The notes under the pieces: generated by a model | Databases searched by the model: none | Told to the model about the DNA's origin: nothing | Seen by the model: the letters and a program-made list of their open reading frames with translations, nothing else | Shown: positions 3,277 to 55,173 of the stretch, piece after piece | Numbering within the stretch: the first letter of the stretch is position 1 | Layout: every line of letters begins with the position of its first letter | Source: a bacterium | Lineage (GTDB): Bacteria; Patescibacteriota; Minisyncoccia; Sungbacterales; SURF-37 | Direction: 5' to 3' | Assembly: GCA_030648055.1 (NCBI GenBank) | Contig: JAUSHI010000009.1 | Coordinates: 47,722-111,721, forward strand | DNA length: 64,000 nucleotides | Position numbers and translations under genes: made by a program

Positions 3277-3954
3277 ATGCTATTATCGCGAGACGCAATT
3301 TTGCGGCATTTCAAGGAGGGGACAATCGTCATTGACCCATATGATGAAAGAAAATTAAAGACCACGAGCTATGATGTAACGCTTGGCGAATGGTTTTGGA
3401 AAGAAAAACATCCTGATGGCGGAGCTACATTGCATAACTTATACGACGAAGAATCCACCAAGCGCGTGTGGTCGGGGCCTTATCAGGCAGAGTTCTCCCA
3501 GGATGTCGCGGGGCGCACAAATGTTCCGTTAAAGAACATCAAGCCCGACGAAAGGGTTATACTTTTGCGGCCCGGAGAAACGGTTTTGGCGCATACTATT
3601 GAATTTATCGGCGGCCGCCATAAAATTGTCGGCAAGATGTACGCGCGTTCTTCCCTCGGCAGGAATTTTGTTGAGGTATGCAAAGACGCCGGCTGGGGAG
3701 ATATCGGATATTTTAACCGCTGGACAATGGAGGTTACGAATAATTCTCAATATTTTACCATCCCGCTTGTCGTTGGCCGCAGAATTGGGCAGATGGTTTT
3801 CTATGAAGTTGAGCCTTTAAAAAACGCGTTGGATTATGTCGGTGAGGGAGGAAAATATCAGCTTTCGCAGGAAATTGAAGAAGTCAAAAAATCATGGAAT
3901 CCAAACATGATGATTCCTCAGATGCATAAAGATTGGGAAGTGCGCTCGCAGTAA
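3277..3954 (+). CDS. dcd: dCTP deaminase family protein (dUTPase superfamily)
   Basis: The N-terminus MLLSRDAILRHFKEGTIVIDPYD plus 225 aa is typical of Dcd-like enzymes. Confidence 0.7.
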   Translation: MLLSRDAILRHFKEGTIVIDPYDERKLKTTSYDVTLGEWFWKEKHPDGGATLHNLYDEESTKRVWSGPYQAEFSQDVAGRTNVPLKNIKPDERVILLRPGETVLAHTIEFIGGRHKIVGKMYARSSLGRNFVEVCKDAGWGDIGYFNRWTMEVTNNSQYFTIPLVVGRRIGQMVFYEVEPLKNALDYVGEGGKYQLSQEIEEVKKSWNPNMMIPQMHKDWEVRSQ

Positions 3955-4205
3955 CCCAAAAATTTTCAGCTCCGATTCAGACAAAATTTCCTCACGCCCA
4001 GCGCAATATAATTAAGAAAAATTTGAACTCAACCTCGCTTCGGCTTAGCCGAAACTCGGGATTCAAACAGCAAATTTTTCTTATATTGCTCGCGCGTTCG
4101 TTATTTTGTAGCTGAATCTCCGCAATGAAAATTTTTGCATCACTGCTCGCTTTAATGAATACGGACGGTGAATTTGTAGTTATATCTTCGCGATGAAAAA
4201 ATTTA
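3955..4205 (+). repeat. Family A repeat, copy 1 (about 250 bp with a GC hairpin and internal 'aatcggagc / aaaatttt' sub-repeats)
   Basis: It is about 75-80% identical to the reverse complement of 34238..34490. The central hairpin is ttcggc-tta-gccgaa here versus ccccggc-ttgta-gccgggg in copy 2, so the stem is kept by different bases. It starts 1 nt after the dcd stop. Confidence 0.7.
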
Positions 4206-4274
4206 CGCAATACGCGCTTTAGTATTTTCCTAAGGTAGTAATTTTAGAGCCTCTGTCTAAAACTAAAATCAAAA

Positions 4275-4654
4275 ATGAACCCAATTATTTTTGTCATACT
4301 TACTGTTCTAAGTTTTGGGGCCTGGACCGCATTTCATAAACTTGCCTCGCCATATATTAATCAAATATTCTGGGCAATCTTCGTTTCTTTTACTGTAGTA
4401 ATTATAGGAACTATTTGGTTGCTACCCCAATTAAAAAATATACACCTTGTTACAGACTCGAAAGGTGTTTTTTCCCTTGCATTGGCTGGTGTTTGTGCCT
4501 TTTTTATAGATTTATGTGCACTAAAGGCATATTCCGGGGCTTATCAATTATCATTGGCGGCCCAATTATTATAGGTGGTAGCATTGCAGTTGCGGCAATT
4601 ATTGATTTTTTCTTGGGGGATTCGATTGGCGGTAAGTTAAGAGGTATACTATAA
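4275..4654 (+). pseudogene. EamA/DMT-like small membrane transporter, split by a 1-nt frameshift at a G4 tract (~4536)
   Basis: ORFs 4275..4574 and 4415..4654 are the N- and C-halves of one 4-TM protein. Adding one G to the ccgggg run restores ...KAYSGGLSIIIGGPIIIGGSIAVAAIIDFFLGDSIGG. Confidence 0.5.
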
Positions 4655-4657
4655 AGG

Positions 4658-5299
4658 ATGGAACAAAAAAAAAATTACTATATTGCCATGGCTGGGATTA
4701 TGGGGTCGGGTAAGACTACCGTGGCAAAATTACTTTCGCGTGAACTTGGATTCACGCTTTTTGAAGAGACCGTTGCCGAGAATTCCTTTTTGCCGCTTTT
4801 CTATAAAGATGCGCGGCGGTGGGCGTTTCACAACCAGCTTTTCTATCTTCATGATAATGTTCGGCAGCTCAAAACAATACAGGAGATGCTACAACGCATG
4901 AGTGTTGTCCAGGATTCGCTGATTCATGATCATTATTTTACATATACCAAGGCGCAACTTGAGCTTGGTCATATGCTTCCTGCAGAATTTGCTTTGTATG
5001 AACAATATGTAGCCGCAATTTGGCGCGATGTGCCAATTCCTGACTTAATAATTCAGCTGGATGCGTCAGTGTCCGTGCTTGCTGAACGAATTCAGAAGCG
5101 TTCGCGAGATTTTGAAAAAGAAATTGACACGCACTACCTTGAAACGCTTTCTCGCCTGCAGGGCGAATGGGTCCTTGCGCACCCTCACCTTCCCATTCTT
5201 TCCGTCGCGGTTGATCATATTAATTTAGCATCCGGTCGTGAAGACCAGCGGATGTTTATCGGGTTGGTGCGAGAGAGGCTTGGAATTAAAATGAAATAA
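4658..5299 (+). CDS. Deoxynucleoside kinase (dAK/dGK family)
   Basis: P-loop MAGIMGSGKTT with a dNK-family layout over 213 aa. Confidence 0.8.
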   Translation: MEQKKNYYIAMAGIMGSGKTTVAKLLSRELGFTLFEETVAENSFLPLFYKDARRWAFHNQLFYLHDNVRQLKTIQEMLQRMSVVQDSLIHDHYFTYTKAQLELGHMLPAEFALYEQYVAAIWRDVPIPDLIIQLDASVSVLAERIQKRSRDFEKEIDTHYLETLSRLQGEWVLAHPHLPILSVAVDHINLASGREDQRMFIGLVRERLGIKMK

Positions 5300-5341: not shown

Positions 5342-6113
5342 TTAGGATACGAATGGGATCAGGTCTTCCAGAGAACGAAGTGTTTGTATGCGCGGGTGCT
5401 CCAGGGGTTGCGATTGGAAACCTTCACCACGGTCATGAGGGTTGAAGAGGGGTGAGCTTGAACCGTGCGGCACATAGATACCGCTCCATTCCTTTCCAAG
5501 AGAGAGGGCGGGTAGAATGTCGTTGTCGCCATTGCCGATGGCGAACCACCATTCAAACCGAGAGCTATCGGAAGTGTATCCGCTTACGCGACAGAAATCA
5601 TCCGCGGTTTTCTTCTGTTCTGTTGCCTGTACGCGTTCCTGCGGAAAAAATTCAAAAATGTTCATGTGTGTGGCACGGCGATGGAATAGTGCGGTGTCAT
5701 AGCACGAAAGAAGACAAAGGCGATGGCCGCCCGCTTTCAGGTGTTGGAGAACAGCACGGGCTTCCGGCAACCATTCTAGTTTTGTGTAGTCAAAAGGCAG
5801 ATCACCGATTGCGCGGACAAGCATTTCATGTTCCTGGCGATAATAGTTTTTTCCGAAGCGCCATTTTGCCCATGTGCATACTTCTCGGTAGAAGAGCGCC
5901 ATCGCTTCCGCGACTCTGCCCCGCCGTACTCCCCATTCTTTGAAGAGTTCTAGGTCGATCTCAAAATAACGATCTTTGACGTAGTGCAGGTTAGGGACGT
6001 GTCCTGGAAGCAGTTCATAGAGCACGCGGAAGAATTCTGAACGGGCGTGAGAATATTGCCACTCATTCATCCAGAGCGTGTCATCAGCATCAAAGACGAA
6101 TTACGTTCGGCAT
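5342..6113 (-). pseudogene. HAD-superfamily hydrolase with an apparent 1-nt frameshift immediately after the start codon
   Basis: SD gaggagg plus the ATG at 6113 encode MPNV. One extra nt (~6101) then shifts the frame before the in-frame HAD motif I FVFDADDTLW, which precedes the first ATG (6070) of the long ORF. HAD motif IV (FAIGNGDNDIL) is present. Confidence 0.6.
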
Positions 6114-6232
6114 CTCGTCCTCCTCTTCGCAGGACCTTATTTTTTTAGTAGTATGTGAAAGTACTATTACTGGCTAGTTTATATTGCTTTTCTCGCGGGC
6201 ACAATTTTTCTTATACACAGTATTTGCACACT

Positions 6233-7498
6233 ATGCGCGACAAAGAAATTTTTTCACTCCTTCAGGAAGAAGCAAAGCGTCAGCAGGAGACGCTTGATTT
6301 GATACCGTCGGAAAATATTGCCTCCGCGGCGGTGCGCGAAGCGCTTGGCTCGGAATTTGTTAATAAGTATTCGGAAGGATATCCGGGAAAACGTTATTAC
6401 GGCGGGAATAAAATCGTTGACGAGGTTGAATTGCTCGCCCAAGAACGCGCGCGCAAAGTTTTTCATCTCGGTAAAAATTGGCACGTAAACGTTCAGCCGT
6501 ATTCGGGTTCTCCGGCAAATATGGCGGTCTATTACGCCCTTTTGGGTCCGTGTGAGTCTGCGCCAAGTCAGCGTAAGTCCGCGGATATTCTGGGCATGTC
6601 GCTTCCGTTCGGCGGGCATTTGACGCACGGATGGAAAGTTAATTTTTCGGGGAGATTTTATAAGTCGGCGCAGTACACGGTCGGTCGTGATGGGTTGATT
6701 GATTACAACGAAGTCGCGCGTCTCGCACGGAAAGAACGGCCAAAAATAATTGTAGCGGGCGCGACCGCGTATCCGCGGATTATTGATTTCAAAAAGTTTG
6801 CGGCCATCAGCCGCGAAGTCGGAGCGTATTTTATGGCGGATATCGCGCACATTGCCGGGCTTATTGCCGCCGGCGCTCATCCAACGCCTTTTCCTTTCGC
6901 GGATGTCGTGACAACGACCACGCATAAAACCCTTCGCGGCCCCAGAGGGGCTATGATATTCGCAAACAAAAATTCGCAGGTTGCAAAAAAGAATTTGGTT
7001 GATATTGCCTCAGCCATAGACCGAGCGGTATTTCCAGCCTTACAGGGCGGGCCTCATGACAACCAAACCGCAGCTATTGCCGTTGCGCTCGGCGAGGCCA
7101 TGGAGCCGTCGTTCAAAAAATACGGCCATCAGATCGTGAAAAACGCGAAAGTGCTTGCGCGCGAATTGCAAAAACTCGGATTCCGGCTGGTATCTGGCGG
7201 TACGGATAATCATTTGATGCTCGTGGACCTTACCAACCTCGGCATTTCCGGCAGAGAGGCCCAAGACCGGCTGGAGGAGGCGGGCATTATCGTCAACCGG
7301 AATACTATCCCGTACGATACGCGCTCGCCCTTTGATCCTTCAGGCATTCGTGTCGGCACACCATCAGTTACTACGCGAGGGATGAAAGAAAAAGAAATTA
7401 AAATAATTGCCGGATTTATTTATGAAGCTTTGACGAATGGCGGTGGGCGTGCTATGAATTTTAAAGTTAAAGCTCTTTGCAGAAAATTTCCTGTATAA
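6233..7498 (+). CDS. glyA: Serine hydroxymethyltransferase
   Basis: SHMT motifs (DLIPSENIASAAV, GYPGKRYYGG, HLTHG, PLP Lys in TTTHKTLRGPRG). The internal ATG at 6233 matches the canonical N-terminus. Confidence 0.92.
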   Translation: MRDKEIFSLLQEEAKRQQETLDLIPSENIASAAVREALGSEFVNKYSEGYPGKRYYGGNKIVDEVELLAQERARKVFHLGKNWHVNVQPYSGSPANMAVYYALLGPCESAPSQRKSADILGMSLPFGGHLTHGWKVNFSGRFYKSAQYTVGRDGLIDYNEVARLARKERPKIIVAGATAYPRIIDFKKFAAISREVGAYFMADIAHIAGLIAAGAHPTPFPFADVVTTTTHKTLRGPRGAMIFANKNSQVAKKNLVDIASAIDRAVFPALQGGPHDNQTAAIAVALGEAMEPSFKKYGHQIVKNAKVLARELQKLGFRLVSGGTDNHLMLVDLTNLGISGREAQDRLEEAGIIVNRNTIPYDTRSPFDPSGIRVGTPSVTTRGMKEKEIKIIAGFIYEALTNGGGRAMNFKVKALCRKFPV

Positions 7499-21658: not shown

Positions 21659-22720
21659 AACAAAAGAAAAGCGGACCATGTCCGGAATGGACTTTGAAAA
21701 TAAAGGCGGTTGGCTTCTGCTTGTAAAAATAATTTTGGAATCGTTTATGGTCCGTTTTAAAAAAAATAAAAAATCTGGGTTTTGGCGAATATCCGGATGC
21801 AGTAAATATAGAAAATGCCAATCTAAGCCCTGAAGAAGGCACTTTTTTATGTGAATGCCAAGCGAAAAATCCGCGAAATGCTTTACCATTTTCGGTTCGT
21901 ATAAAAGTTTTAATCCTAATTTACGCGCTCTTATTTTAAATTCCATAAAGCCGACATGCTTAAAATACGGATTGAATCCGCCCAACTTTTCAAAAATTTC
22001 TCTACGGTAGCAAACATTGGCGGTTAAGCCGCATTGATTATTTAGAATATCAAAGTTTTTTGTGCGAACATGCGTGCGGTAAAAATGCTTCCACATTGTA
22101 AACCGGTGATAAATATCAAGGGGGGGTTTTATCGGCCAAGGTTCTTTAAATCCGCCGACTCCGGCGATTTCCGGGTTGGCTTCCAGTTCTCGCTTGAATT
22201 CAAAAAGCCAGTCTGGCGGGACAATACAGTCGTCGTCGGTAAAGGCGAGCAAATTTCCCTGCGAATTTAAAACGGCGACATTTCGCGCTAAATCGGCGCC
22301 GTAATTTTTTTTTAATTTGATATAAACCATACTCGTCTGTCTATTTTGATCCGCAAAATCCTCCACCGCTTTTTCGGTCTTATCTTTTGAACCGTTATCA
22401 ATTATTACTATCTCAAATTCATCCAAAGAAATATTCTTCTGCCCTATTACGGCGTTAACGGTTTTTAAAAGCAGGTCGCGGCGATTATAAGTTGGAACGA
22501 TTATACTAAATAGAACAACGTTTTTTTTATTAGAGCCGAATTTTGTGACATTCTCAATGTAAGAAGTATAATCATCGCGCAAAAAATTGTTATCCTCGGG
22601 AGGAGTTTCCCCGTAAAAAAATTCAATCAGTTCACGATAGGAGGTATTGTCCTGCTCTATACGACAAATAATGCGCAGAGTTTTTAAAAAATTAGACGAC
22701 ATGTTGATAATAACTTTCAT
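21599..22720 (-). CDS. GT2 family glycosyltransferase
   Basis: FSIIVPTYNRRDLL...VIIDNGSKDKT and ...FTDDDCIVPPDW. There is an N-terminal extension of about 65 aa. Confidence 0.8.
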   Translation of the reverse strand: MKVIINMSSNFLKTLRIICRIEQDNTSYRELIEFFYGETPPEDNNFLRDDYTSYIENVTKFGSNKKNVVLFSIIVPTYNRRDLLLKTVNAVIGQKNISLDEFEIVIIDNGSKDKTEKAVEDFADQNRQTSMVYIKLKKNYGADLARNVAVLNSQGNLLAFTDDDCIVPPDWLFEFKRELEANPEIAGVGGFKEPWPIKPPLDIYHRFTMWKHFYRTHVRTKNFDILNNQCGLTANVCYRREIFEKLGGFNPYFKHVGFMEFKIRARKLGLKLLYEPKMVKHFADFSLGIHIKKCLLQGLDWHFLYLLHPDIRQNPDFLFFLKRTINDSKIIFTSRSQPPLFSKSIPDMVRFSFVSIVTNFFLWFGKYWLVAFG

Positions 22721-23567
22721 AATCTTCTTTTAATCCTGAAAATAAAGGTTGAAATTTTAATCCCAGCGCTTTAATTTTGCTGTTGTCGCATATCATATTT
22801 TCATTGGCAAAAGGGAACTCTTCTTTGTCAAAATTTTTTCCGGCGGCAGGCGGATTGAACCGCAAAACTGGATCCTTACCGGAGATTTTTCCCATCATCT
22901 TCACCAAATCAATAAGTGTTATTGTTTCGTCTCCGGCGCAGTTAAATGCGCCGACAGCGCGTTTTTCCGCAATCGCCGCGATTGCTTCGGCTACTTCTTC
23001 GGCAAACACAAATTGAATTTTGGCTTGACCATCGCCTGGTAAAATAAGCGGCCGGTTATTTTGAATTCGTGTATAGATAAAGCGTTCGCGGTTCTGATAA
23101 TTTTTTGGTCCTAAAATATAGACCGGACGAAACGAGGCATATTTTATTCCGCTTTCTTCAAGAACTTTTTCGCACCCAGCCTTGCCCCTGCCGTAGTTGC
23201 CCCAAATCGGCCAATCGCCTACGGGAGAAAGTTCGGTTAATGGAAACAAATGGGGTTTTTTATAAACCGCGGCGGTGCTAAAATGTAAAAAGAAGTCAAA
23301 ACGCAATTCCCGTATAGCGTTTTCGGTTTGCGCTTCGCTGTAAGCGCACATATCTATCACTGTATCAAAGCGCTCTTTCAGATTGTATCCTCTGTTTCTG
23401 TCACCTGTTACAAAACGCGCTTTCGCCGGATATTCTAACTGTATCAATCCGCGATTAAATATAGTTAAATTATGTCCGCGGTTTAACAGAAGTTCTACGA
23501 GATAGGGCCCCACAAAACGCGAGCCGCCGATTATTAAAATATTTTGCTTGTCAGGAGAGGTCATCAT
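22692..23567 (-). CDS. NAD-dependent epimerase/dehydratase (extended SDR)
   Basis: ILIIGGSRFVGPYLVELLLNRGH Rossmann motif. Confidence 0.8.
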   Translation of the reverse strand: MMTSPDKQNILIIGGSRFVGPYLVELLLNRGHNLTIFNRGLIQLEYPAKARFVTGDRNRGYNLKERFDTVIDMCAYSEAQTENAIRELRFDFFLHFSTAAVYKKPHLFPLTELSPVGDWPIWGNYGRGKAGCEKVLEESGIKYASFRPVYILGPKNYQNRERFIYTRIQNNRPLILPGDGQAKIQFVFAEEVAEAIAAIAEKRAVGAFNCAGDETITLIDLVKMMGKISGKDPVLRFNPPAAGKNFDKEEFPFANENMICDNSKIKALGLKFQPLFSGLKEDYESYYQHVV

Positions 23568-23573
23568 ATCATT

Positions 23574-23664
23574 GTGTATAACACATTTGCCAAGACGCTG
23601 AAAATAGTTGTATTATTATAGTGTATAACACATTTGCCAAGACGCTGAAAATAGTTGTATTATT
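23574..23664. repeat. Perfect tandem direct repeat, 2 x 44 bp separated by 3 bp, each unit promoter-like (TTGCCA-18-TATTAT)
   Basis: gtgtataacacatttgccaagacgctgaaaatagttgtattatt occurs at 23574..23617 and again at 23621..23664, in the divergent intergenic region between the epimerase and ORF 23695. Confidence 0.85.
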
Positions 23665-23694: not shown

Positions 23695-25149
23695 GTGAAA
23701 AACCTTTTTAATTCTCTTAAGTTTATTTTTAGAGCGTTTCTTTTAGTTATTATCTTACTGTTTGGCTGGGCGTTTATTAATGTCGCCAATTTAATCAAGG
23801 GCAAAAAAACGCCGGACAAAGATTCTTTGTCCGCCAACCCGTTTGGGGCGGATGAAGCAAGGGCTGACACTCCGGGAGGAGGGGGTTTTTCTTCTTGCCC
23901 TTTTCTCGCTTGTTTTAATGGAAAAGAATACAAATTAGAAAATGATATTCTTTTTGGAAGACCAAAGAGCTACTGGCCTACATACGAAACAGCCAAAGCC
24001 ATGTACGAAGATGGCCGTATAAGCCCCGATCTTTACAAAATCACCAGCCCAATAAGGCCCCATAATAATAAATTGCTTTTTCAAATTCAGGAAATAGAAC
24101 CGGAAGAAAGTTTCTTTAAGCAACTTCGTTTAAAAAGAGTTTTACATCCCCAAAATACGGAAGTCATCGTGGACTCTGAATTTAAGAAGTATTACGTTCT
24201 CCCCCAAACCGAATTTCTAAAAAGCATTATTCTTCCATCGCTTGTAAAAAATGCTGATAAAAAAGATGTGGCGGTAAGTTTTAGTTTAGGCCGGGTCTTT
24301 GTAAGCGATACGGAAGGGGACGATGGAATTAAATTTCAAAAAAACGAAGAGTTTTATTTTTATTTTAAAGACCTAAATCCTAAAGAGACTTCCCATCTTT
24401 TACTGTCTTCATTTAATCGTGACTGGCAGTTAGGATATCAAGAAGAATGGGTTGCCAACCCCCAGTTTAATATTCGCGCACTTATTAGCCGTTTAGATTT
24501 TGCGCGTGTTGGGGTCGGAGTCGCGTTACTAATTGGTGCTTGGATATCGGGAAAATGGGGTTCTGTTGCGACCGCTGCGGTATTGAGCCCTTTTTTTATC
24601 GGAGCAGGGCAAGCGGGTTGCTCATTTATAATTGAATATAAAGATAGGGACGAAACCTATTCAAGAGTAGCGGTTACTGAAGCAAGGGCATGGAAATACA
24701 ATACGGAAATTATTGAAATTCCTCGGGACAGTATTACGCCAAGTGGTGAGCTTGAGTTAAGAATAAAGTCGTCAAAAAGACATGTTCTTGGTTTCGCTGG
24801 GATATCTCAAAAAATAGAGTCGCTTAATAATAAAAATTATCAAGAAGAAATATTACCGTTAATTACAGCCGAGCATAGTAGATTACGAAAAGACGTTTCG
24901 GGCGACCTTAAGAGTAGAGAGGGATCGTATGTTCATACAATACCGGGCGATACGATTAATCTTGAGTTTAGTGTTCCGGAAAGTTTGGTTTCCGATGAAA
25001 ACAAGGAAACATATCTTATTCAGTCATCCGGTTTTTACACATCCCTTAGGCCGGAAAATATGAAGCTCGCCGGCAATTGGAAAGAAAAAATCTCTCAAGA
25101 GGCAAAAGAACGTCTTGAAAAACTTGTTTCGCTAAGTTCTTATAAATAA
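23695..25149 (+). CDS. Hypothetical membrane/extracytoplasmic protein (N-terminal TM plus an internal hydrophobic segment), unknown function
   Basis: GTG start, TM helix FLLVIILLFGWAFINVANLI. No recognisable catalytic motifs. Confidence 0.4.
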   Translation: MKNLFNSLKFIFRAFLLVIILLFGWAFINVANLIKGKKTPDKDSLSANPFGADEARADTPGGGGFSSCPFLACFNGKEYKLENDILFGRPKSYWPTYETAKAMYEDGRISPDLYKITSPIRPHNNKLLFQIQEIEPEESFFKQLRLKRVLHPQNTEVIVDSEFKKYYVLPQTEFLKSIILPSLVKNADKKDVAVSFSLGRVFVSDTEGDDGIKFQKNEEFYFYFKDLNPKETSHLLLSSFNRDWQLGYQEEWVANPQFNIRALISRLDFARVGVGVALLIGAWISGKWGSVATAAVLSPFFIGAGQAGCSFIIEYKDRDETYSRVAVTEARAWKYNTEIIEIPRDSITPSGELELRIKSSKRHVLGFAGISQKIESLNNKNYQEEILPLITAEHSRLRKDVSGDLKSREGSYVHTIPGDTINLEFSVPESLVSDENKETYLIQSSGFYTSLRPENMKLAGNWKEKISQEAKERLEKLVSLSSYK

Positions 25150-28516: not shown

Positions 28517-28600
28517 TGGGCGAGGAGGGAGTTGAACCCTCATGAGCTTGCGCTCGCAGGATTTTGAGTCCTGTGCGTCTGCCAGTTCCGCCACTCGCCC
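28517..28600 (-). tRNA. tRNA-Leu (anticodon CAA), type II with long variable arm
   Basis: The reverse complement folds as GGGCGAG / TG / GCGG-AACTGGCAGA-CGC / A / CAGGA-CTCAAAA-TCCTG / long variable arm / GAGGG-TTCAACT-CCCTC / CTCGCCC-A. This is near the E. coli tRNA-Leu pattern. No encoded CCA. Confidence 0.88.
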
Positions 28601-28681: not shown

Positions 28682-29443
28682 ATGGCTACCGTAATTTCTG
28701 TTCTCAATCAAAAAGGAGGAACCGGCAAGACAACAACTAGCGTTAATCTGTCTGCTTATTTGGTCGCCTTGGGAAAGAAAGTTCTCTTGGTTGATATTGA
28801 TCCGCAGGCTAATGCCACATCCGGGCTTGGTGTGGACCGCAAGACCCTCAAGGAAAATCTTTATCACGCGCTTGTGCTGGATGTTTCTCCGGGCGGCGTT
28901 ATAAGAAAAACACGGCTTTTAAATCTTGATATTTTACCGGGCTCGCCGGATCTTGCCGGAGCCTCGGTGGAGCTTGTTGGTATGAAAAGGCGCGAGTTTA
29001 GGCTGAGAGACCTTCTCAAAAAAGTTTCCGGAGGGTACGATTATATAATAATTGATCCTCCGCCCTCGCTCGGGCTTTTGACGCTGAATTCCATTACCGC
29101 CTCCGACAAAGTGATTATTCCCGTGCAGTGCGAGTATTACGCCATGGAGGGGTTGGCCGAGCTTTTAAGGACAATTCAGCTTGTAAAGAAAAACTTAAAA
29201 TCAAAAATTGAAGTCGGCGGGGTGGTGCTTACCATGTTTGATAAAACTTCTCGTCTTCACAGGGCGGTTGCCAAAGAAATACGGAAAAAATTTCCCGGAC
29301 ATGTGTTTGAAACGGTAGTCCCGAGAAATATCAGCCTCGCGGAGGCCCCCAGTTTCGGCAAGGCGATTCTGCAATACGACCCTTATAGCCACGGAGCAAA
29401 GGCCTATAGACAATTGGCCCAGGAACTAATACAGATGAAGTAA
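28682..29443 (+). CDS. parA: Chromosome partitioning ATPase ParA/Soj
   Basis: Deviant Walker A NQKGGTGKTTTSVNL. Confidence 0.9.
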   Translation: MATVISVLNQKGGTGKTTTSVNLSAYLVALGKKVLLVDIDPQANATSGLGVDRKTLKENLYHALVLDVSPGGVIRKTRLLNLDILPGSPDLAGASVELVGMKRREFRLRDLLKKVSGGYDYIIIDPPPSLGLLTLNSITASDKVIIPVQCEYYAMEGLAELLRTIQLVKKNLKSKIEVGGVVLTMFDKTSRLHRAVAKEIRKKFPGHVFETVVPRNISLAEAPSFGKAILQYDPYSHGAKAYRQLAQELIQMK

Positions 29444-29582
29444 GATAAAGAAATTTATGAATCCCGTTAGAAGCCGCGGTCGCGGTGCGGGAAATATATA
29501 GTACTAATAATATGAGAAAGGAGATTATAAATTATCAGTATAATAATCAGCAGGCACCGACCGCGACCCGCTTTTAAACGGA

Positions 29583-30680
29583 ATGAACCCATTAGGTAAA
29601 GGACTTGAATCACTAATACCAGACAAAGACCCCTTGGAGTTAAGCGATAAGGAGCCGCTGGATATTTTAGATGCGCAAGCAAATATTCCAGAGCCAGTTT
29701 ATCGTCTCGCTTCTTTGGGAGGCGCGACTGTGCCAAGAGCTGATTTTGGAACCAGTGCTCATAATGAAATTAAGGCCGAGGTCGCCAAAACGATGCTCGC
29801 ACTCGCCCCTAGCCAAGAAAATTTTCACGAGGAAGTGCCTCGCTACGCGCGCTCTAGGGGAGAGAGTGTTTTTTGGATTGACATAGGTAAGATTGAGCCG
29901 AACCCTTATCAGCCCAGAAAGGAGTTTGATGAGGAGGCGTTAAAAAGTTTGTCGGATTCAATACGGACGCACGGAGTGCTTCAGCCTATCGTAGTTTATA
30001 AAGTTGAGGTGGAAACTCCCCGGGGCCTTGATGTCCGCTATCAGCTAATAGCGGGTGAGAGAAGGTGGAGAGCGTCAAAAATGGCTGGGCTTCGTGAGGT
30101 TCCGGCAATGGTTAAGCGGGGGCAGGCCGAAGAGCGTCAAAAATTAGAGTGGGCTATTATTGAAAATGTTCAGCGCGAGGATTTAAGTCCGGTTGAGCGC
30201 GCGCGTGCTTTCAAACAGCTTATTGGTGAGTTCAACCTTTCCCAACGAGATGTCGCCGGCCGAATCGGGAAAAGCCGCGAATATGTGGCCAATGCCATCC
30301 GGCTTTTGTCGCTTCCCGTACATATTCAGACGGCGATTGAAAGCGGGACTATAAGCGAAGGTCATGCCCGAGCTATTTTGACTATGCAGGGTTTGCCGGA
30401 AAGCCAGAATAAACTTTTTGAAGAAATTAAGGCCAACAGTTTGACGGTGCGCGACGCAGAGCTCGCCACCCGCGCGATGCTTGGCGCGCGGAGGCCCACT
30501 AAACGGAGGAACGCTTCTTTTCTTGACCCGGAAGTGCGCTCGGTTCAGTCGCGGCTTGAGGAGACGCTAGGCACAAAAGTGCTTTTGCAAAAGGACGGCG
30601 AACGCGGGAAAATCATCGTGGAGTTTTATTCCGATGAAGAACTGCGGAGTATAATTAGCAAGATGATGAGCGGAGAATAA
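29583..30680 (+). CDS. parB: Chromosome partitioning protein ParB/Spo0J (with a lineage-specific insert of about 90 aa after the N-terminal motif)
   Basis: N-terminal GKGLESLIP, ParB box IEPNPYQPRKEF...GVLQPIVV, and the HTH region. Confidence 0.85.
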   Translation: MNPLGKGLESLIPDKDPLELSDKEPLDILDAQANIPEPVYRLASLGGATVPRADFGTSAHNEIKAEVAKTMLALAPSQENFHEEVPRYARSRGESVFWIDIGKIEPNPYQPRKEFDEEALKSLSDSIRTHGVLQPIVVYKVEVETPRGLDVRYQLIAGERRWRASKMAGLREVPAMVKRGQAEERQKLEWAIIENVQREDLSPVERARAFKQLIGEFNLSQRDVAGRIGKSREYVANAIRLLSLPVHIQTAIESGTISEGHARAILTMQGLPESQNKLFEEIKANSLTVRDAELATRAMLGARRPTKRRNASFLDPEVRSVQSRLEETLGTKVLLQKDGERGKIIVEFYSDEELRSIISKMMSGE

Positions 30681-34097: not shown

Positions 34098-34237
34098 ATC
34101 AAAAACGCCCAAACGGGCGTTTTTCATTTTTAATTTATTCCAAGCGAGCTTTTCCTGAAATTTTCCATTGCGTAGGTTTTACCCAAGCGAGTCATTTCAG
34201 AATTTTCCCCTCGCCCCTTTAATCATATGAGCGAGGT

Positions 34238-34490
34238 ATTAGCAAAATTTTTTATTGCGCAGATTTAGGAACAAAATGACGAGCATATTAGCAACATAAG
34301 GAAAATCTGCTGTGTGAATCCCCCGGCTTGTAGCCGGGGATGAGTTCAGATTTTCCTTAATAATGTTGCGAAATATGAGAGGAGATTTTGTCTCAATCGG
34401 AGCTGAATAAATTTTTGTTGATGCCGAGCGTTGTTTTGTGAAGTGCGCGAAGTAGAATTTGTTCAAATCGGAGCGGGGAAAATTTTGAAA
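34238..34490 (-). repeat. Family A repeat, copy 2 (inverted relative to copy 1)
   Basis: The reverse complement aligns with 3955..4205. Its central hairpin is ccccggc-ttgta-gccgggg. It lies immediately 3' of the topA stop (34500). Confidence 0.7.
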
Positions 34491-34499
34491 TGGCGAGCG

Positions 34500-36665
34500 T
34501 CACTTTTTATGCGGATTGTGATTTGGGCAAGTTTTATTACTGCACCTTTCGGGAATGGTTTTTGTTCCCTGCATCATTAAGGACCCGCAAAGTGGGCAGA
34601 CGTTTCCTGTGGGGCGCGCCTTCACGGCGAAGATGCATTTGGGGTAATTTGAACAGCTGAAAAACGGACCAAAGCGCCCTCTTCGTTCAACAATCTCACC
34701 CTCTTTGCACTGCGGGCACTTGACTCCGGTTTTGGCGCGCTCTTCTTCTTCAGCGCTCTTCTTTATGTATTTACATTTCGGATAATTTTTACAGGCTATA
34801 AATTTTCCGAATCTTCCTTCGCGTTCTATCAGCTTGCCTTCTTTGCACTCGGGGCATATTTCTCCGGTCTCTCTTGGTGCTTCAAGAACACTGCCGTCCA
34901 TTTTTCTTGCCCCACTGCATTCTGGAAAACGGCTACAGCTTAAAAATTTTCCATTTCTTGAAAGTTTTATAATCATGGGGCTTCCGCACACCGGACAAGG
35001 AAATTCAGCAGGGCCTTCGCCGAGGTTTGTGAGCTTAGCGATTTTTTCTTTTGATTTTATTTCTTTGCTAAAAGGGCCGTAGAAATCGCGCAGTGTTTTA
35101 ACATATTCTTTTTTGCCGTCCGCGATTTCATCTAAAGTATTTTCCATATCTGCGGTGAAAGAGTCGCTTATGTATGAAGCAAAATTTTCTTCCAAAAATG
35201 AACTTACCACTTCGCCGGTGTCTGTAGGTTTTAGGGCTCTTCCTACTTTCTCGGCGTATCCCCGGTCTTGAAGCGTTTTAAGAATTGCCGCGTAAGTTGA
35301 GGGGCGTCCGATTTCGCGTTTTTCAAGTTCTTTGACTAAACCGGCTTCAGTGTAGCGGGAGGGCGGCTCGGTTGCTTTAGCTTCGCTTGTTACATCTTTT
35401 AGAGATAAAGCCGTGCCTTCCGCAAGGTGCGGAAGTTCAATGTCTTCGCCCCTAGCCGCGGGATCGGCATTAAGCCAGCCCGGGAAAACAATCACGCTTC
35501 CGTTGATTGAAAAATCAGGAATCAGTTCTTTTGGCCCGGTGATATTTGCCGATATTTTTGTGCGAAGCGTTTTTGCGTCAGTCATTTGCGAGGCAAGGGC
35601 GCGCGCGCGGATGAGCGAGTACAATTTTTTTTGCTCCGGAGTTGAACCGGCGGTCTTCGCGTTCATTTTTGTCGGGCGCACCGCTTCGTGCGCTTCCTGG
35701 GCGGTTTTTGATTTGGTGGTATACACTCTCGGAGATAAATATTCTTGGCCGTAGGTTTTTTCTATTTCGGCGTGGATCGCGGCTTGGGCCTCGGTTGATA
35801 ATGTCGGGCTGTCGGTGCGCATGTAGCTGATGTGCCCCTGCTCATAGAGCTTTTGCGCGATTGACATGGTGTATGACGGAGAGAATCCAAAGCGGGAGCT
35901 CGCTGTCTGCTGCATGGTTGAGGTAGTAAGCGGTGGCTTGGGAGAGCGCTTTACTTCGGCTTGCGTAACGGAGTTTATTTGCCAAGAATGTTTTTTGGCC
36001 TCCTCAATAATTCGTGATGATTCTTTTTCGGTTTTCGGCTCCTCATCGCAGGTAAGTGTCAGTATGTGTTTTTGAGGCGTTTCAAATTGCCCAGATATAA
36101 TCCAGTAAGCTTCAGGAATAAAAGCGCGTATTTCGCGCTCGCGCTCCATAATAATGCGAAGTGCTGGAGATTGTACTCTTCCGGCCGAAAGGCCGTAGCG
36201 CACTTTTTTCCAAATAAGACCGCTTAAGTCGTATCCGAACAAGCGATCTAAAACTCGCCGCGCCTCTTGTGCGGTTCGCAGATGTTCGTCAATATCCCGG
36301 GGATGTTTTAACGCTTCGTTGACCGCGTGTTCGGTGATTTCATTGAAGACAACGCGTTTCGGGCTTTTTAAATTACAGGCCTCTTTGACGTGCCAGGCGA
36401 TTGCTTCGCCTTCGCGGTCGGGGTCGGTTGCGAGAACCACCTCACTTGCTTTTTCCGAAAGCGAAGTTAGTTCCTGCACAATTTTTTCTTTACCTTTGAC
36501 TATTTCATAATGGGGAATGAAGCCGGCTTTGATATCTATGGCTTTTTTGTTTGATTTCGGCAAATCACGAATATGCCCGACGCTCGCGCGGACCTCATAT
36601 GTTCCATGAAGATATTTAGATATTGTTTTTGCCTTTGCCGGAGATTCGACAATCAATAATTTCAT
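34500..36665 (-). CDS. topA: DNA topoisomerase I with C-terminal zinc ribbons
   Basis: TOPRIM MKLLIVESPAKAKTI, active-site region, and multiple C-terminal CxxC zinc fingers. The ATG at 36665 matches the canonical N-terminus, so the ORF-track start at 36704 is probably spurious. Confidence 0.9.
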   Translation of the reverse strand: MKLLIVESPAKAKTISKYLHGTYEVRASVGHIRDLPKSNKKAIDIKAGFIPHYEIVKGKEKIVQELTSLSEKASEVVLATDPDREGEAIAWHVKEACNLKSPKRVVFNEITEHAVNEALKHPRDIDEHLRTAQEARRVLDRLFGYDLSGLIWKKVRYGLSAGRVQSPALRIIMEREREIRAFIPEAYWIISGQFETPQKHILTLTCDEEPKTEKESSRIIEEAKKHSWQINSVTQAEVKRSPKPPLTTSTMQQTASSRFGFSPSYTMSIAQKLYEQGHISYMRTDSPTLSTEAQAAIHAEIEKTYGQEYLSPRVYTTKSKTAQEAHEAVRPTKMNAKTAGSTPEQKKLYSLIRARALASQMTDAKTLRTKISANITGPKELIPDFSINGSVIVFPGWLNADPAARGEDIELPHLAEGTALSLKDVTSEAKATEPPSRYTEAGLVKELEKREIGRPSTYAAILKTLQDRGYAEKVGRALKPTDTGEVVSSFLEENFASYISDSFTADMENTLDEIADGKKEYVKTLRDFYGPFSKEIKSKEKIAKLTNLGEGPAEFPCPVCGSPMIIKLSRNGKFLSCSRFPECSGARKMDGSVLEAPRETGEICPECKEGKLIEREGRFGKFIACKNYPKCKYIKKSAEEEERAKTGVKCPQCKEGEIVERRGRFGPFFSCSNYPKCIFAVKARPTGNVCPLCGSLMMQGTKTIPERCSNKTCPNHNPHKK

Positions 36666-36776
36666 CCCGTACGAAATAGGACGCGGACGCAGAATATCCC
36701 GCATCCCAGATTATTACTAATTTTTTCTAACAAAATTCATATATATGATGTGCACGCGTCCGCGATTTCGTACGGG
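36666..36776. repeat. Family C-like inverted repeat, copy C2 (arms cccgtacgaaataggacgcggacgc / gcgtccgcgatttcgtacggg) abutting the topA start codon
   Basis: Arms of about 22 bp are separated by about 64 bp. The left arm ends at the topA ATG. Confidence 0.5.
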
Positions 36777-48124: not shown

Positions 48125-48265
48125 AGTTGCAAACAATAGAACCCAGCCCTCTAAGCCATTGAATTACTTTGCTTCTTTGACTAAAAGCCCTTCACTTATA
48201 TTTATAAATGACACTTATTCGAACAGCATAGAGGGCTGGGTGAAGGTTTTGTAACCAAAATTTGG
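48125..48265. mobile_element. Family B MITE-like element, copy I (diverged outer TIRs; core TIR CCCAGCCCTCTA...TAGAGGGCTGGG)
   Basis: Core 48142..48240. The flanking sequence resembles the family consensus TIR extension. Confidence 0.65.
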
Positions 48266-48380: not shown

Positions 48381-49607
48381 ATGAAACTTCATTGGGTTTT
48401 CGTTATCGTTTTTGCGTTTCTTGTCGTTTCTCTTGGTACGGTTATGGCGCCGGTTACGGTCCATTCGGCGGAGCCTACTGGCGAAGAGGTAAACACTATC
48501 AAGGCAGAGATGATGACGTTCGCTGAAATTCTTTACTACTACGCCACAGAAGCGCTTGAAAAGCCCGCGGACCTCAAGGCCTGTGCCTATGAGATGCTTC
48601 GCATGAAGCCCGCGGAGCAGAAGAGTTGCCGTGACAAGTATTCGGTTTGGTATCCGAAGGAAGAGGTTGAAATGGTTGAGGCAGACATGGAGGGAAAGTT
48701 TGGCGGCATCGGCGCGGAGCTTACTGACAAGGACGGAAAAGTTGTGGTCGTGGCTCCCATTGACGGCACGCCGGCATTTCGCGCAGGTTTGAAGCCCGGG
48801 GACGAAATTCTTGAAGTTGATGGCGTTAAGGTTGAGAGTGTGTCTGGTGCGGTAAAGCGCGTTCGCGGGAAGATCGGAACATCAGTTGAGATAAAAGTTA
48901 GGCGCGATGGGAAGAACGACACGATCGTTTTCACAATCGTTCGTGCCGAGATCGTCATTCAGGCGGTTGAGATGAAAGTGCTTCACGGCGCGAATGGAGA
49001 GGCGGGGTATCTTCGCGTGAAGACCTTCAGCGAAGTGATGCCCGATGAGTTTCACAAAGAGATGACGAAACTTCGTGATTCCGGTATTACCAAGGTTGTT
49101 CTTGATTTTCGTGGTAATCCCGGTGGGTTTCTTAATGTAGCATTAGATATTCTTTACGATTTTGCGCGTGAAAGCGATACTTTGATGGTCATGCGCGAGC
49201 GCGATGAGGAAACGGTGTTTGATGCTCTGTCTGTGGGGCGCGCGGTTTTGAAAACCGAGCGCAAACGCACACATGGAATGTTTCTCGGTATGGCGGTTGT
49301 GATTCTCGTGAACAAAGGGAGCGCTTCTGCCTCGGAGGTCTTCGCCGGGACCATGAAGGATTGGGGGTATCCGGTGATTGGCACGAATACTTTCGGCAAG
49401 GGGATTGGACAAACGCATCTTCCGCTTTCCGATGGTTCGGTTTTGAGTCTGACCACTTTTGAGTTCCTGGTCGGCAACTCCAGGACTAAGATTCACGGCA
49501 TCGGTGTTATTCCGACTCATAGTGTTGTCGGGCCGAGGCCAGCCACTTCCGAAATTCTTCGTGAAGACAAACAGCTTGAAAAAGCGCTTGAATTGCTTTT
49601 CAAGTAA
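48381..49607 (+). CDS. ctpA: S41-family C-terminal processing peptidase with PDZ domain
   Basis: Signal peptide, PDZ (GIGAELTDKDGKVVVVAPIDGTPAFRAGLKPGDEIL), S41 motifs VLDFRGNPGGFL and GSASASE. Confidence 0.8.
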   Translation: MKLHWVFVIVFAFLVVSLGTVMAPVTVHSAEPTGEEVNTIKAEMMTFAEILYYYATEALEKPADLKACAYEMLRMKPAEQKSCRDKYSVWYPKEEVEMVEADMEGKFGGIGAELTDKDGKVVVVAPIDGTPAFRAGLKPGDEILEVDGVKVESVSGAVKRVRGKIGTSVEIKVRRDGKNDTIVFTIVRAEIVIQAVEMKVLHGANGEAGYLRVKTFSEVMPDEFHKEMTKLRDSGITKVVLDFRGNPGGFLNVALDILYDFARESDTLMVMRERDEETVFDALSVGRAVLKTERKRTHGMFLGMAVVILVNKGSASASEVFAGTMKDWGYPVIGTNTFGKGIGQTHLPLSDGSVLSLTTFEFLVGNSRTKIHGIGVIPTHSVVGPRPATSEILREDKQLEKALELLFK

Positions 49608-49693: not shown

Positions 49694-49836
49694 AAATTTA
49701 GTTACAACATTGAGCACCCAGCCCTCTATGCTGTTCGAATAAGTGCAATTCATAAATATAAGTGAAGAGTTTTTAATCAAAGAAGCAAAGTAATTCAATG
49801 GCTTAGAGGGCTGGGTGAAGGTTTTGTTGCCAAAAT
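49694..49836. mobile_element. Family B MITE-like element, copy II (inverted relative to copy I; long TIRs)
   Basis: aaatttagttacaacattgagcaCCCAGCCCTCTA ... TAGAGGGCTGGGtgaaggttttgttgccaaaatt. The internal segment is the reverse complement of copy I's internal segment. Confidence 0.7.
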
Positions 49837-49845
49837 TATGCGCGC

Positions 49846-52559: not shown

Positions 52560-52705
52560 AAATTATAAAATTGAGCACCCCGCCCTCTAAGTTGTAAGCG
52601 TTTTTTGTGTCCGACAAATGAAATGAGCCGGCTCTTAAAAATAATAATACTCCTATTATGTCATACGGCATAGGGGGCGGGGTTCTGGTTTTTGTTTCAA
52701 CAGTT
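52560..52705. mobile_element. Family B MITE-like element, copy III (variant core TIR CCCCGCCCTCTA...TAGGGGGCGGGG)
   Basis: ttgagcaCCCCGCCCTCTAag ... caTAGGGGGCGGGGttctggtttttg. The tail tttcgctccgctcaaataaaattggcATG ends at the pth start codon. Confidence 0.65.
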
Positions 52706-53316: not shown

Positions 53317-53545
53317 CATAGAAGGAAAAATAATTTGGACATGCCATCCCCCGCCAATTTTGGGGGGCATGCCGGGGCGAAGCGCTTCGCCCAAAAGGGT
53401 TGTCCTATTCGGACACGCGCTTCGCAAAAGTTACTCATGACATTTTTCTTCCAAATATTTGTCCAGTTGTAACGGCAAAATTGGAGGAGGATGCTCATGA
53501 TTGTAACTAAATTTTATTCGCTTGTGCTCTAAAATTTAGACAATC

Positions 53546-55003: not shown

Positions 55004-55173
55004 ATTTTAGCTAAAAAACCTTTACCCAGCCCCTTATGCAGTTCAAAATTAATAACAGTAAATAATGCGGTAGGTTAACATAAGAGAAAACTTAGCCCAG
55101 GCGGCTTAAGGGGCTGGGTGCTCATGTTTGTAGCTAAATTTATTTCGCTATGAGCTCATAAATTTCGACAAAC
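55004..55173 (+). mobile_element. Family B MITE-like element, copy IV (core TIR CCCAGCCCCTTA...TAAGGGGCTGGG) with a tail ending at the ATG of the HIT gene
   Basis: aaattttagctaaaaaacctttaCCCAGCCCCTTA ... TAAGGGGCTGGGtgctcatgtttgtagctaaattt + tatttcgctatgagctcataaatttcgacaaacATG. Confidence 0.7.

Follow-up and report, generated by a model that had tools for sequence, protein, structure and literature searches.

ERIC/IRU elements of enterobacteria, Correia/nemis elements of Neisseria, RUP of pneumococci and YPAL of Yersinia are 100-300 bp long, non-coding and devoid of a transposase gene. They combine terminal inverted repeats with short flanking direct repeats, are palindromic over their whole length and form long hairpins once co-transcribed, often just 3' of open reading frames (ORFs); some copies are full-length, others vary internally or are truncated. 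RNase III or RNase E processes the RNAs of Correia and ERIC elements (PMC10969869, PMC3184786). Prokaryotic MITEs in general are recognized by a size of 50-800 bp, by their inverted repeats and by a duplication of the target (PMC11602168). REPs are palindromes of 20-40 bp that carry, at one end, an unpaired tag, either GTAG or CGTC (PMC3733652), and REPs and REPINs are thought to be mobilized in trans by RAYT (PMC3733652, PMC3116915). Such units lie 3' of genes in tens to hundreds of copies, either singly or as inverted pairs that form larger hairpins. Palindrome-associated elements of the IS200/IS605 type have no terminal inverted repeats; their ends are distinct subterminal hairpins and not inverted repeats of each other, they make no duplication, and their orientation is tied to the replication strand. 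Many integrative elements restore the stop codon when integrating at gene 3' ends. The genomes of Patescibacteria are tiny and streamlined, and the literature that could be searched describes no MITE family from them.

The repeat described here occurs at two loci of the window, the whole stretch of 64,000 nucleotides that was analysed, 3' of dcd and 3' of topA. It is probably a small non-coding, non-autonomous, palindromic mobile element of the MITE-like kind (~160-300 bp) from Parcubacteria/Sungbacteria-like Patescibacteria. This reading is supported by inverted repeats that reach the tips, CTCG repeats, the occupation of four gene ends, nesting, solo ends and empty sites, and it sustains the REP/MITE-like element that the earlier note had proposed among other options. 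Members of the family are located at the ends of four different genes (dcd, topA, rpsO and parB) across four Parcubacteria/Sungbacteria-like genomes. Their left and right ends, ~65 nt each, are conserved and are mutual inverted repeats to the very tips (CCATATCCTAAAATTTTCCA-like), while the central hairpin is variable. The family is most likely new, though it belongs to an ordinary kind of element and is not a new kind of RNA gene.

Measured against the MITE definition, the dcd copy (197 nt), the nested copy (189 nt), the composite (302 nt) and the copy in locus L033 (161 nt) all lie between 50 and 800 bp. The terminal inverted repeats, for which at least 10-15 bp are expected, extend over 21-36 nt at 78-100%: all 21 nt match in L033, the dcd copy has 21 nt at 86%, and the outer topA copy 36 nt at 78%. 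CTCG has a length suitable for a target-site duplication of 2-10 bp, a reading that it fits no better than that of a recombination core common to both sides or of a right end with CTCG as its own terminus. The element is non-coding and has no internal transposase gene, and its copies are dispersed, with mobility indicated by filled and empty sites, the latter from different species rather than strains. The low copy number, two loci in 64 kb, speaks against a MITE.

The size, non-coding nature, flanking and terminal repeats, hairpin folding, position near ORF ends and range of copy types listed above for ERIC, Correia, RUP and YPAL elements recur in the window element. It differs from them in its longer asymmetric target, (TGA)CGCTCGCT, and its fixed orientation, where those families use TA or TAA-type targets, in its very low copy number and in its host, a Patescibacteria genome of the ~1 Mb class; no sequence similarity to them was detected in Rfam or in plasmid and phage collections. 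Integron attC sites are likewise imperfect palindromes directly 3' of an ORF in which structure is kept more than sequence, but the window element has no R/L core (GTTRRRY) and no integron integrase, and its host genes are housekeeping core genes whose synteny is kept, unlike cassettes. Three further candidates were rejected: TIGR-Tas arrays, as there are no tandem 36-nt units and no Tas genes nearby; the template and variable repeats of DGRs, as there are no adenine-specific differences and no reverse transcriptase nearby; and retrons, on their anatomy, again with no reverse transcriptase gene nearby.

Copy 1, a long-type element with the form of an imperfect palindrome, occupies positions 3949-4145 of the forward strand and is 75% identical to positions 34424-34236 of the reverse strand. 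The blastn alignment within the window covers 185 nt at 74.6% identity (E 4e-28), in keeping with the ~75-80% given in the earlier note, and the conserved blocks quoted there are present. A repeat search pairs the arms 3948-4037 and 34335-34424 (90 nt, 76% complementary), and an nhmmer profile of both copies matches only these two loci of the window, each on both strands owing to the palindromic sequence. Each window copy folds into a hairpin of ~190 nt. The apical hairpins also proved to be as described before, with TTCGGC-TTA-GCCGAA at 4039-4053 in copy 1 and CCCCGGC-TACAA-GCCGGGG on the reverse strand in the other copy. Copy 1 begins with CAGTAACCCAAAAATTTTCA and ends with TGAAAATTTTTGCATCACTG, matches the left-end and right-end profiles with E-values of 1.5e-16 and 3e-15, and gives an RNA fold of -70 kcal/mol (z -4.7).

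The upstream gene, dcd (3277-3954, forward strand), encodes dCTP deaminase (PF22769, E 6e-30; 1476 homologues, the best at 87-88%); Pfam confirms the identities previously assigned to both dcd and topA. On the 5' side, the element is preceded by CTCG at 3945-3948 (forward strand), the target or target-site duplication, which together with 3943-3944 reads CGCTCG and encodes Arg-Ser of Dcd. On the 3' side, the sequence continues with the second CTCG at 4146-4149 (forward strand) and CTTTAA. Positions 4153-4221 of the same strand contain an incomplete second copy that consists of a solo right end (...TTTGTAGTTATATCTTCGCGATGAAAAAATTTACGCAATACGCG|CTTTAG), identified by the right-end profile (E 1.6e-11) and by pairwise alignment with the corresponding end of copy 1.

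The second locus has a composite architecture. The gene topA (34500-36704, reverse strand; Pfam Toprim, Topoisom_bac and Zn_ribbon_Top1) encodes topoisomerase I and is the last of a dprA-topA pair whose synteny is kept in relatives; its TGA stop codon is at 34502-34500. The 302-nt composite element (34192-34493, reverse strand) consists of an outer short-type element, with its left arm at 34493-34429 and its right arm at 34231-34192, and a long-type element nested centrally. The outer left arm is homologous to the copies in loci L025 and L033, and CTCG flanks the composite at 34497-34494 and 34191-34188. The nested element, copy 2 (34236-34424, reverse strand), is the homologue of the dcd copy and sits between CGCTCG (34430-34425) and CTCG (34235-34232). 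Both copies had been reported to start next to a stop codon. This holds for dcd, with the refinement that the element starts 6 nt before the gene end and contains the stop codon; at topA it holds for the outer related element, which starts 2 nt after the stop codon, and not for the part homologous to the dcd copy, which starts ~75 nt after it.

A solo right-end remnant (34145-34187, reverse strand; ...CCTACGCAATGGAAAATTTCAGGAAAAG CTCG|CTTGG) was identified by alignments and a right-end profile match at 34239-34142 (E 6e-11), so that solo right ends adjoin both window copies. The sub-repeats noted before (CGCRATRRAAAWWTTT) give five matches against 0.63 expected, four of them in the two loci, and they are extra partial copies of the right end. 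A bidirectional intrinsic terminator (AAAAACGCCCAAACGGGCGTTTTT), found by the terminator scan, lies outside the element at 34101-34124, which places the topA copy between stop codon and terminator, in the presumed 3'UTR. The suggestion that the repeat is itself a structured terminator is not supported: no T-run follows the long hairpin, this separate canonical terminator is located downstream of the topA copy, and the prediction gives none in the interval from dcd to the gene that follows. A second palindromic family is present in the same window at 48-61 kb.

The insertion sites share a short motif. CTCG is found on both sides at five of six complete junction pairs, the sixth being CTCG/CTTG, with flanks of the form CG-CTCG|...|CTCG-YT and the context (TGA)CG-CTCG|...|CTCG-CT. 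The window shows no enrichment of the motif CGCTCGCT, with three occurrences against 2.2 expected. At dcd, the first six bases of the element, CAGTAA (3949-3954), supply the last Dcd codon and the stop. The C-termini of Dcd homologues read ...DWEVRS-x-stop, and VRS is kept in 120 homologues. Since the Arg-Ser pair is conserved in homologues without the element, CGCTCG at dcd is host target sequence and not part of the element. In silico removal of the element and one CTCG yields GTG CGC TCG CTT TAA, which encodes VRSL-stop and restores the usual length. The predicted empty-site junctions are GTGCGCTCG|CTTTAATG at dcd and TGACGCTCG|CTTGG at topA.

In all five insertion events the element has the same orientation with respect to the asymmetric target, and at all four loci it has the same orientation with respect to the upstream gene: it is on the strand of the gene and starts 0-2 nt past the stop codon or, at dcd, 6 nt short of the gene end. 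Such constancy is not usual among classical DDE transposons with target duplication, and a site-specific or single-strand mechanism would fit better. The abutment on the stop codon at each of the four loci is explained only by way of an extended target that we infer, in combination with selection.

Further copies in L014, L025 and L033 answer the earlier note's concern that there might be none. The copy after rpsO (L014; nhmmer E 2e-80) is 86.8% identical to the window composite over 326 nt (positions 1722-2047 of L014), the copy after parB (L033, in the Sungbacteria MAG GCA_016186145.1) matches the left-end and right-end profiles with E-values of 6e-16 and 7.5e-15, and the copy in L025 follows topA of a relative whose TopA is 84% identical. 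In both the window topA locus and L014, the nested long-type copy sits at an internal CGCTCG of the short-type copy; between these two loci the inner copy is 92.5% identical and the outer arms 84% and 68%. Empty sites, which come from relatives with ~80% protein identity, were found for both genes: in L026 and L028 the terminator follows the topA stop codon at a distance of 66-93 nt, and the gene after dcd follows within 3-8 nt in L035-L037, with unrelated spacers in L001, L003 and L038. Left ends are equally alike at orthologous and non-orthologous sites (53-72%), which indicates that their similarity is a property of the family and does not reflect descent at a single locus; fourfold-degenerate sites of topA are 47% identical.

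Searches of 38 loci (~310 kb of related genomes) with the left-end and right-end profiles gave no copies beyond dcd, topA, L014, L025 and L033; a look-alike tip in L038 was discarded as not significant (E 1.5). Larger collections were scanned for patterns, exact 18-21-mers being required in GTDB and JGI. Among GTDB species representatives, CAGCTCCGATTNAGACAAAAT had no match and GGATTCAMACAGCARATTTT two chance matches; the exact-pattern scan of IMG/VR gave one chance match, in a coding region, and that of JGI metagenomes gave 17 loci, of which only L014 is real. The composite element had no blastn match in plasmids or phages.

An alternative explanation is a selected, cis-acting RNA module of the 3'UTR that would protect against exonucleases, provide an RNase III/RNase E site or couple termination to folding, mobility being only its means of spread. 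Effects of this type are known for Correia and ERIC elements (PMC10969869). The placement on the gene's strand at the stop codon in four of four loci would agree with such a role, as would the topA copy, which is upstream of the terminator and should be transcribed, and the related copy at the same topA site in a species with near-saturated neutral sites. Compensatory changes occur in 12 of 64 pairs compared to 4.8 in shuffles, and 93.7% of the cells are paired compared to 34-49% when the partners are slid. The compensatory pairs and the orthologous topA copy in two species would also fit selection on structure. However, the pairs are almost all Watson-Crick, and both strands therefore fold; in the L033 copy, the youngest-looking, they do so equally well (-85.0 and -84.5 kcal/mol). 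Near-pure Watson-Crick pairing and folding of two strands are the signature of a DNA palindrome and not of an RNA made from one strand, so the functional RNA that had been deduced from covariation is not specifically supported, real as the compensatory pairs are. A 3'UTR-derived small RNA, another reading of the earlier note, would show as a stable, separate transcript whose ends are defined, and such a role is conceivable. For the window copies, folding of the antisense strand is 14-30 kcal/mol more favourable than that of the transcribed sense strand. A functional antisense RNA was considered and dropped as a family property, because the C-rich, G-poor sense strand of the long type explains the difference and L033 is symmetric. 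Comparison with Rfam gave only a tRNA in the window at the gathering threshold and, at E-values up to 10, only generic hairpins (miRNA precursors at 15-20 bits, with thresholds of 40-211), hence no family match at either level. The same genes lack the element in close relatives, orthologous copies are no closer than paralogous ones, and solo ends and nesting are products of decay and insertion rather than functional designs. On balance, we consider a selected RNA module unlikely. There is next to no chance that the small ORFs at 3933-4115 (forward strand) and 34239-34466 (reverse strand) encode real small proteins and that the repeat reflects a gene family. A single frame does run uninterrupted through the core of each of the three long-type copies, but the peptides have no relatives among 5.8 billion proteins, the ORF at dcd starts with a TTG inside dcd, its upstream part has a stop in L014, and the two most similar copies differ at 15 nucleotides, which alters ~12 residues. 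Reverse-strand frames run into stops in other copies, and the palindromic structure accounts for the conservation, in line with the previous verdict that these ORFs are spurious.

Two other explanations concern the enzyme that moves the element. Insertion 3' of CTCG by a single-strand HUH tyrosine transposase, with no duplication and a right end that terminates in CTCG (REP/REPIN-RAYT-like or IS200/IS605-derived), would account for the orientation fixed in all five events, for solo right ends and unit clusters in alternating orientation, and for a position downstream of genes like that of REPs (PMC3733652); it predicts the same empty site as the duplication model. A tetranucleotide at the edge of palindromic units that occur singly or in inverted pairs is a further resemblance to REPs and REPINs. 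Nevertheless, this origin appears improbable: by the REP criteria (PMC3733652), the units are too long, 65-200 nt with ends of ~65 nt instead of 20-40 nt, there is no GTAG or CGTC tag, and CTCG is on both sides. The inverted repeats reach the tips, unlike in IS200/IS605 elements, and the window contains no RAYT or TnpA gene. The two window copies are opposite on one replichore, GC skew being positive throughout, and thus show no bias relative to the direction of replication (n = 2); a replication-strand preference was rejected on the same grounds, although parAB is located between the copies. The footprint of site-specific recombination by a tyrosine or serine recombinase or an IS110-like enzyme, with CGCTCG as crossover core, the inverted ends as binding arms and integration at housekeeping-gene 3' ends restoring the stop, is very improbable. 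It draws on an identical core on either side, strict orientation, and integration at gene 3' ends with replacement of the last codon and stop in dcd, and joining the two ends of the L033 copy would give a perfect palindromic site of the form 20-CTCG-20. 3'-end-targeting integrative elements and Tn7-like transposons similarly insert at housekeeping stop codons in fixed orientation and preserve the gene end. But these elements span kilobases, carry their own integrase or transposase and target one gene, whereas the window element has ~200 bp and occupies at least four genes via a short motif. The four genes share only ~8-11 nt of motif, the target flanks are unlike the arms of the element, which has no cargo, and the window ORFs searched against Pfam include no nearby recombinase gene; a crossover core and a 4-bp duplication look alike here.

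For the MITE-like element, the following course of events may be proposed from sequence comparison. A transposase or recombinase supplied in trans would bind both inverted ends and insert the element in one orientation at a host (TGA)CG-CTCG-CT, leaving CTCG on either side. No transposase, integrase or HUH family was found in the ~60 window ORFs scanned against Pfam, out of 69 ORFs of at least 60 aa, nor did the 64-kb window reveal an insertion sequence bounded by these ends that could serve as autonomous partner. As the preferred target would resemble a stop codon followed by CGCTCG, and insertions inside genes would be lethal in a compact genome, the surviving copies would be those at or near stop codons of housekeeping genes, on the strand of the gene. 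The element would tolerate or supply a stop codon, as suggested by CAGTAA at dcd, and might then be co-transcribed as a long 3'UTR or intercistronic hairpin, with any effect on mRNA stability or processing as a by-product. Further insertions into CGCTCG sites of other copies could give rise to nesting, and decay to solo ends. A bolder and rather doubtful version holds that these are orientation-locked, site-specific mini-elements of the CPR which seek a stop codon with CGCTCG, are moved by a recombinase (HUH, IS110-like or tyrosine) and are retained because their hairpin, placed exactly at the stop codon, influences translation termination or the mRNA upstream of it; the palindromic family at 48-61 kb would belong to the same system.

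If the element is mobile as proposed, selfish palindromic DNA persists even in streamlined Patescibacteria, where it uses a rare harmless place at the stop codon, and its target specificity raises the small question of which enzyme moves it. The strict CGCTCG target makes the family a possible marker for strain typing in metagenomes. The element explains the unusually long 3' regions of dcd and topA as well as the differing last codon of dcd, and the spurious small ORFs at 3933-4115 (forward strand), 3992-4210 and 34239-34466 (both reverse strand) can be removed from the annotation.

Family A is a genuine repeat. It is most likely a new family belonging to an already known type of selfish element, and its target specificity is neat. 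Its two loci in the window lie 3' of dcd (gene 3277-3954; element 3949-4145, forward strand) and 3' of topA (gene 34500-36704; element 34192-34493, both on the reverse strand); both genes are confirmed by Pfam. A blastn alignment of the two copies within the 64-kb window (185 nt, 74.6% identity, E 4e-28) bears out the repeat reported in the earlier note, and a repeat search gives an inverted pair, 3948-4037 and 34335-34424, with 90-nt arms that are 76% complementary. Matches of a profile built from both copies are confined in the window to these loci, each on both strands because the element itself is palindromic. The conserved blocks and two differing apical hairpins are present as described in that note, as are the short sub-repeats CGCAAT-AAAATTTT, which are extra partial right ends, placed by profile and alignment 3' of the dcd copy (4153-4221) and of the topA copy (~34187-34145). 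The small ORFs of the two copies had rightly been called spurious: no protein relatives were found for them, and their reading frames are not kept from copy to copy.

A scan of JGI metagenomes with an 18-mer from the left arm matched 17 loci, but only one proved genuine. This member, L014 (1738-2040; nhmmer E 2e-80), begins 2 nt past the rpsO stop codon and is 86.8% identical to the window topA locus over 326 nt. Two more members came from neighbourhoods of TopA homologues. In L025, whose TopA is 84% identical, TGA-CG-CTCG-CCCTTTCAGAAAATTTTTCAGCTTCGG... stands after topA in exactly the position seen in the window. L033, from the Sungbacteria MAG GCA_016186145.1, carries a 161-nt member directly 3' of the parB stop codon (TGA-CTCG-CCATATCCTAAAATTTTCCA ... 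TGGAAAATTTTAGGATATGG-CTCG), with a terminal inverted repeat of 21/21 nt and, at its centre, a perfect hairpin of 15 bp. Equally good folding of its two strands (-85.0 and -84.5 kcal/mol) suggests a young copy. Left-end and right-end profiles pick up every member (E between 1e-18 and 6e-11), with no other significant match in the window or the ~300 kb of loci searched. Downstream of topA in L033 (8514-8640; the same in L034), a 58-nt palindrome bounded by AAAATTTT, AAAATTTTGTGTCAAAAATCTTGC-TATA-GCAGGATTTTTGACCACTGAAAATTTT, precedes two hairpins that resemble terminators; this palindrome may be a miniature, distantly related form of family A, although it gave no significant match in the profile searches.

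Alignment of seven left ends and six right ends gives the plan CTCG, left end, variable central hairpin, right end, CTCG. The left end (~65 nt) reads CCAT..CAAAATTTT..GCTCCGAT..GA.ACAAAT.CT..CTCGCG.., and the right end ..TCGT.ATTTGT....ATCT.CGCAATGAAAATTTT, followed by 6-9 nt and then CTCG. Two central modules occur: the dcd copy and the nested copies have a long one, L033 and L025 a short one. The window topA locus and L014 are composites, in which a long-type element sits within an outer short-type one, at an internal CGCTCG and again with CTCG on each side. Between these two loci the nested part is 92.5% identical and the outer arms only 84% and 68%; the nested element is either a later, independent arrival at the same internal target or under tighter constraint.

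The junctions repeat the tetranucleotide almost without exception. The 5' and 3' flanks are GTGCG-CTCG and CTCG-CTTTAATG for the dcd copy, GTGACG-CTCG and CTCG-CTTGGG for the outer topA element of the window, CAACG-CTCG and CTCG-CTCATA for the element nested in it, ATAGCG-CTCG and CTTG-CTTTTAG for the outer L014 element, ATGACG-CTCG and CTCG-TTCGG for the nested one, and TCTGA-CTCG and CTCG-TTCGGG for L033; L025 has ATGACG-CTCG, and its contig ends on the 3' side. The octamer CGCTCGCT is not enriched in the window, with 3 occurrences against 2.2 expected, so the CTCG flanks are specific to the element. At dcd, CGCTCG codes for the Arg-Ser of the C-terminal motif DWEVRS-x-stop. Since this motif is common among 120 Dcd homologues and the close relatives checked have no family A element downstream of dcd, the hexamer is host sequence. 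Without the element and one CTCG, dcd would end GTG CGC TCG CTT TAA (VRSL-stop), at the usual length; its present last codon and stop, CAG TAA, are the first six bases of the element. TopA ends in NPHKK-stop in the window and L025, which have the element, and in NPHKSSK, NPHKINKT or NPHLAQKT at sites without it.

In all five insertion events the element faces the same way with respect to its asymmetric target, and at all four loci it shares the strand of the gene upstream. The earlier note placed both copies within about 10 nt of a stop codon; the element abuts the stop codon at 4/4 loci, and the dcd stop lies within it. With pre-insertion spacers of ~27, 45 and 66-93 nt, we estimate that uniform placement would put three insertions at most 2 nt from a stop with a probability of ~1e-4 to 1e-3. 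A longer preferred target, roughly T-G-A-C-G-C-T-C-G-C-T, could explain this abutment: a target with TGA or TAG would find few harmless sites in a compact genome besides real stop codons. TGA also precedes the nested L014 copy, where it is not a stop codon. A site-specific or single-strand mechanism would account for the fixed orientation and gene strand better than a classical DDE transposase would, whereas inverted repeats reaching the tips argue the other way. These regularities of orientation, strand and stop codon exceed the textbook MITE picture and are only partly explained.

Sites without the element in relatives, together with sequence divergence, favour mobility over descent at each locus. 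In L026 and L028 (80% TopA identity) topA is followed by just 66-93 nt with stop and terminator, in L035-L037 the next gene begins 3-8 nt after dcd, and in L001, L003 and L038 the spacers after dcd are unrelated. Between the window and L025, topA has only 47% identity at its fourfold-degenerate sites. Left ends at this shared site are 65% identical, no different from those at unrelated sites (53-72%), so the similarity belongs to the family and not to the locus. The closest relatives (Dcd 87-88% identical), L001 (2840-3075) and L038 (1060-1280), have directly 3' of dcd a different GC-rich spacer of ~230 nt, full of GCTCGC motifs; that of L001 folds strongly (-105 kcal/mol, z -5.1), and neither has detectable kinship with family A.

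Structure was an argument for a functional RNA in the earlier note. Both window copies are predicted to form a single long imperfect hairpin (dcd, 3950-4215, -70.2 kcal/mol, z -4.7; topA, -97.2 kcal/mol, z -6.1). Among the 64 pairs that RNAalifold predicts for the three long-type copies, 12 have changed on both sides. Pairing in these copies is maintained, because 93.7% of cells are paired, against 34-49% with partners slid by 1-3 columns, and double-changed pairs number 12 against 4.8 ± 1.7 in shuffles. The compensatory pairs noted earlier are thus real, but give no specific support to a functional RNA: just one pair varies on one side only, via G-U, which indicates folding of either strand. 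A C-rich, G-poor sense strand (50 C and 31 G at dcd) accounts for the 14-30 kcal/mol by which the strand opposite the gene folds better in the window copies. Given this composition, the lack of asymmetry in L033 and no relation to replication skew, the better folding is not taken as evidence for an antisense RNA. The proposed structured terminator fails, as no T-run follows the hairpin; a canonical bidirectional terminator lies past the topA copy (34101-34124), which places the copy in the presumed 3'UTR. A search of Rfam, as the earlier note advised, matched no family to the element. An RNA gene finds no support in these computations and is the less likely reading.

Of the REP/MITE-like option, the MITE part holds. 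Family A has every defining feature of prokaryotic MITEs (size, inverted repeats of at least 10-15 bp, a 2-10-bp duplication, no transposase; PMC11602168), plus dispersal, nesting and solo ends, and is therefore filed as a new MITE-like family. REP/REPIN is rejected on unit size and tag (PMC3733652), an IS200/IS605-type element because the inverted repeats extend to the tips; an attC site was also rejected. Family A works like palindromic MITEs of the ERIC, Correia, RUP or YPAL type; these are transcribed together with the gene upstream of them, and RNase III or RNase E can cleave them (PMC10969869, PMC3184786). The searched literature gave no description of MITEs in Patescibacteria beyond incidental co-mentions, and the phylum is absent from the main text of a 183,232-genome MITE survey and a 2024 review.

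Housekeeping genes make up the compact window. Its Dcd and TopA homologues assign it to Patescibacteria (named matches: Parcubacteria, Candidatus Sungbacteria, Wolfebacteria; best Dcd match 87-88% identical). Pfam found no transposase, integrase or HUH domain among ~60 of the 69 ORFs of at least 60 aa, including all of at least 150 aa. GC skew stays positive along the whole window, which therefore lies on one replichore and, despite parA-parB (28682-30680), does not contain the origin; the sole Rfam match, a tRNA gene (28517-28600, reverse strand), adjoins parA-parB. Between dcd and glyA (6155-7498) lies a 2.2-kb segment with family A at its left edge and no remnant at its right, holding a small, maybe frameshifted membrane-like ORF (4275-4574 / 4415-4654), a deoxynucleoside kinase (4658-5299) and a reverse-strand gene of unknown identity (5342-6070). 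In several relatives dcd and glyA are adjacent (3-8 nt, L035-L036) or parted by a spacer alone (L001).

A second palindromic intergenic repeat, family B (~135-150 nt), is unrelated to family A. Four full copies (48127-48262, 49695-49837, 52563-52704, 60986-61122) and two half copies (53473-53521, 55100-55148) occur, with arms ..TTACAA..GAGCACCCAGCCCTCTA / TAGAGGGCTGGGTG..TTGTA.. around a non-palindromic ~70-nt centre; the RNA fold has z -5.4, and Rfam gives no match. Two copies in inverted orientation, 94% complementary over 102 nt (48141-48242, 49715-49816), flank an S41 peptidase gene (48381-49607). Just past another, upstream of a ribonucleotide reductase gene, CGCTCGC...GGCTCGCTCATA (61127-61150) repeats the 10-mer found where the nested family A copy has its 3' junction (34235-34226; ~0.1 expected by chance), and may be an empty or decayed target, or chance. 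The intergenic region that separates the divergent genes at 22692-23567 (reverse strand) and 23695-25149 (forward strand) contains a tandem duplication of a 47-nt unit (23567-23660, 96% identical).
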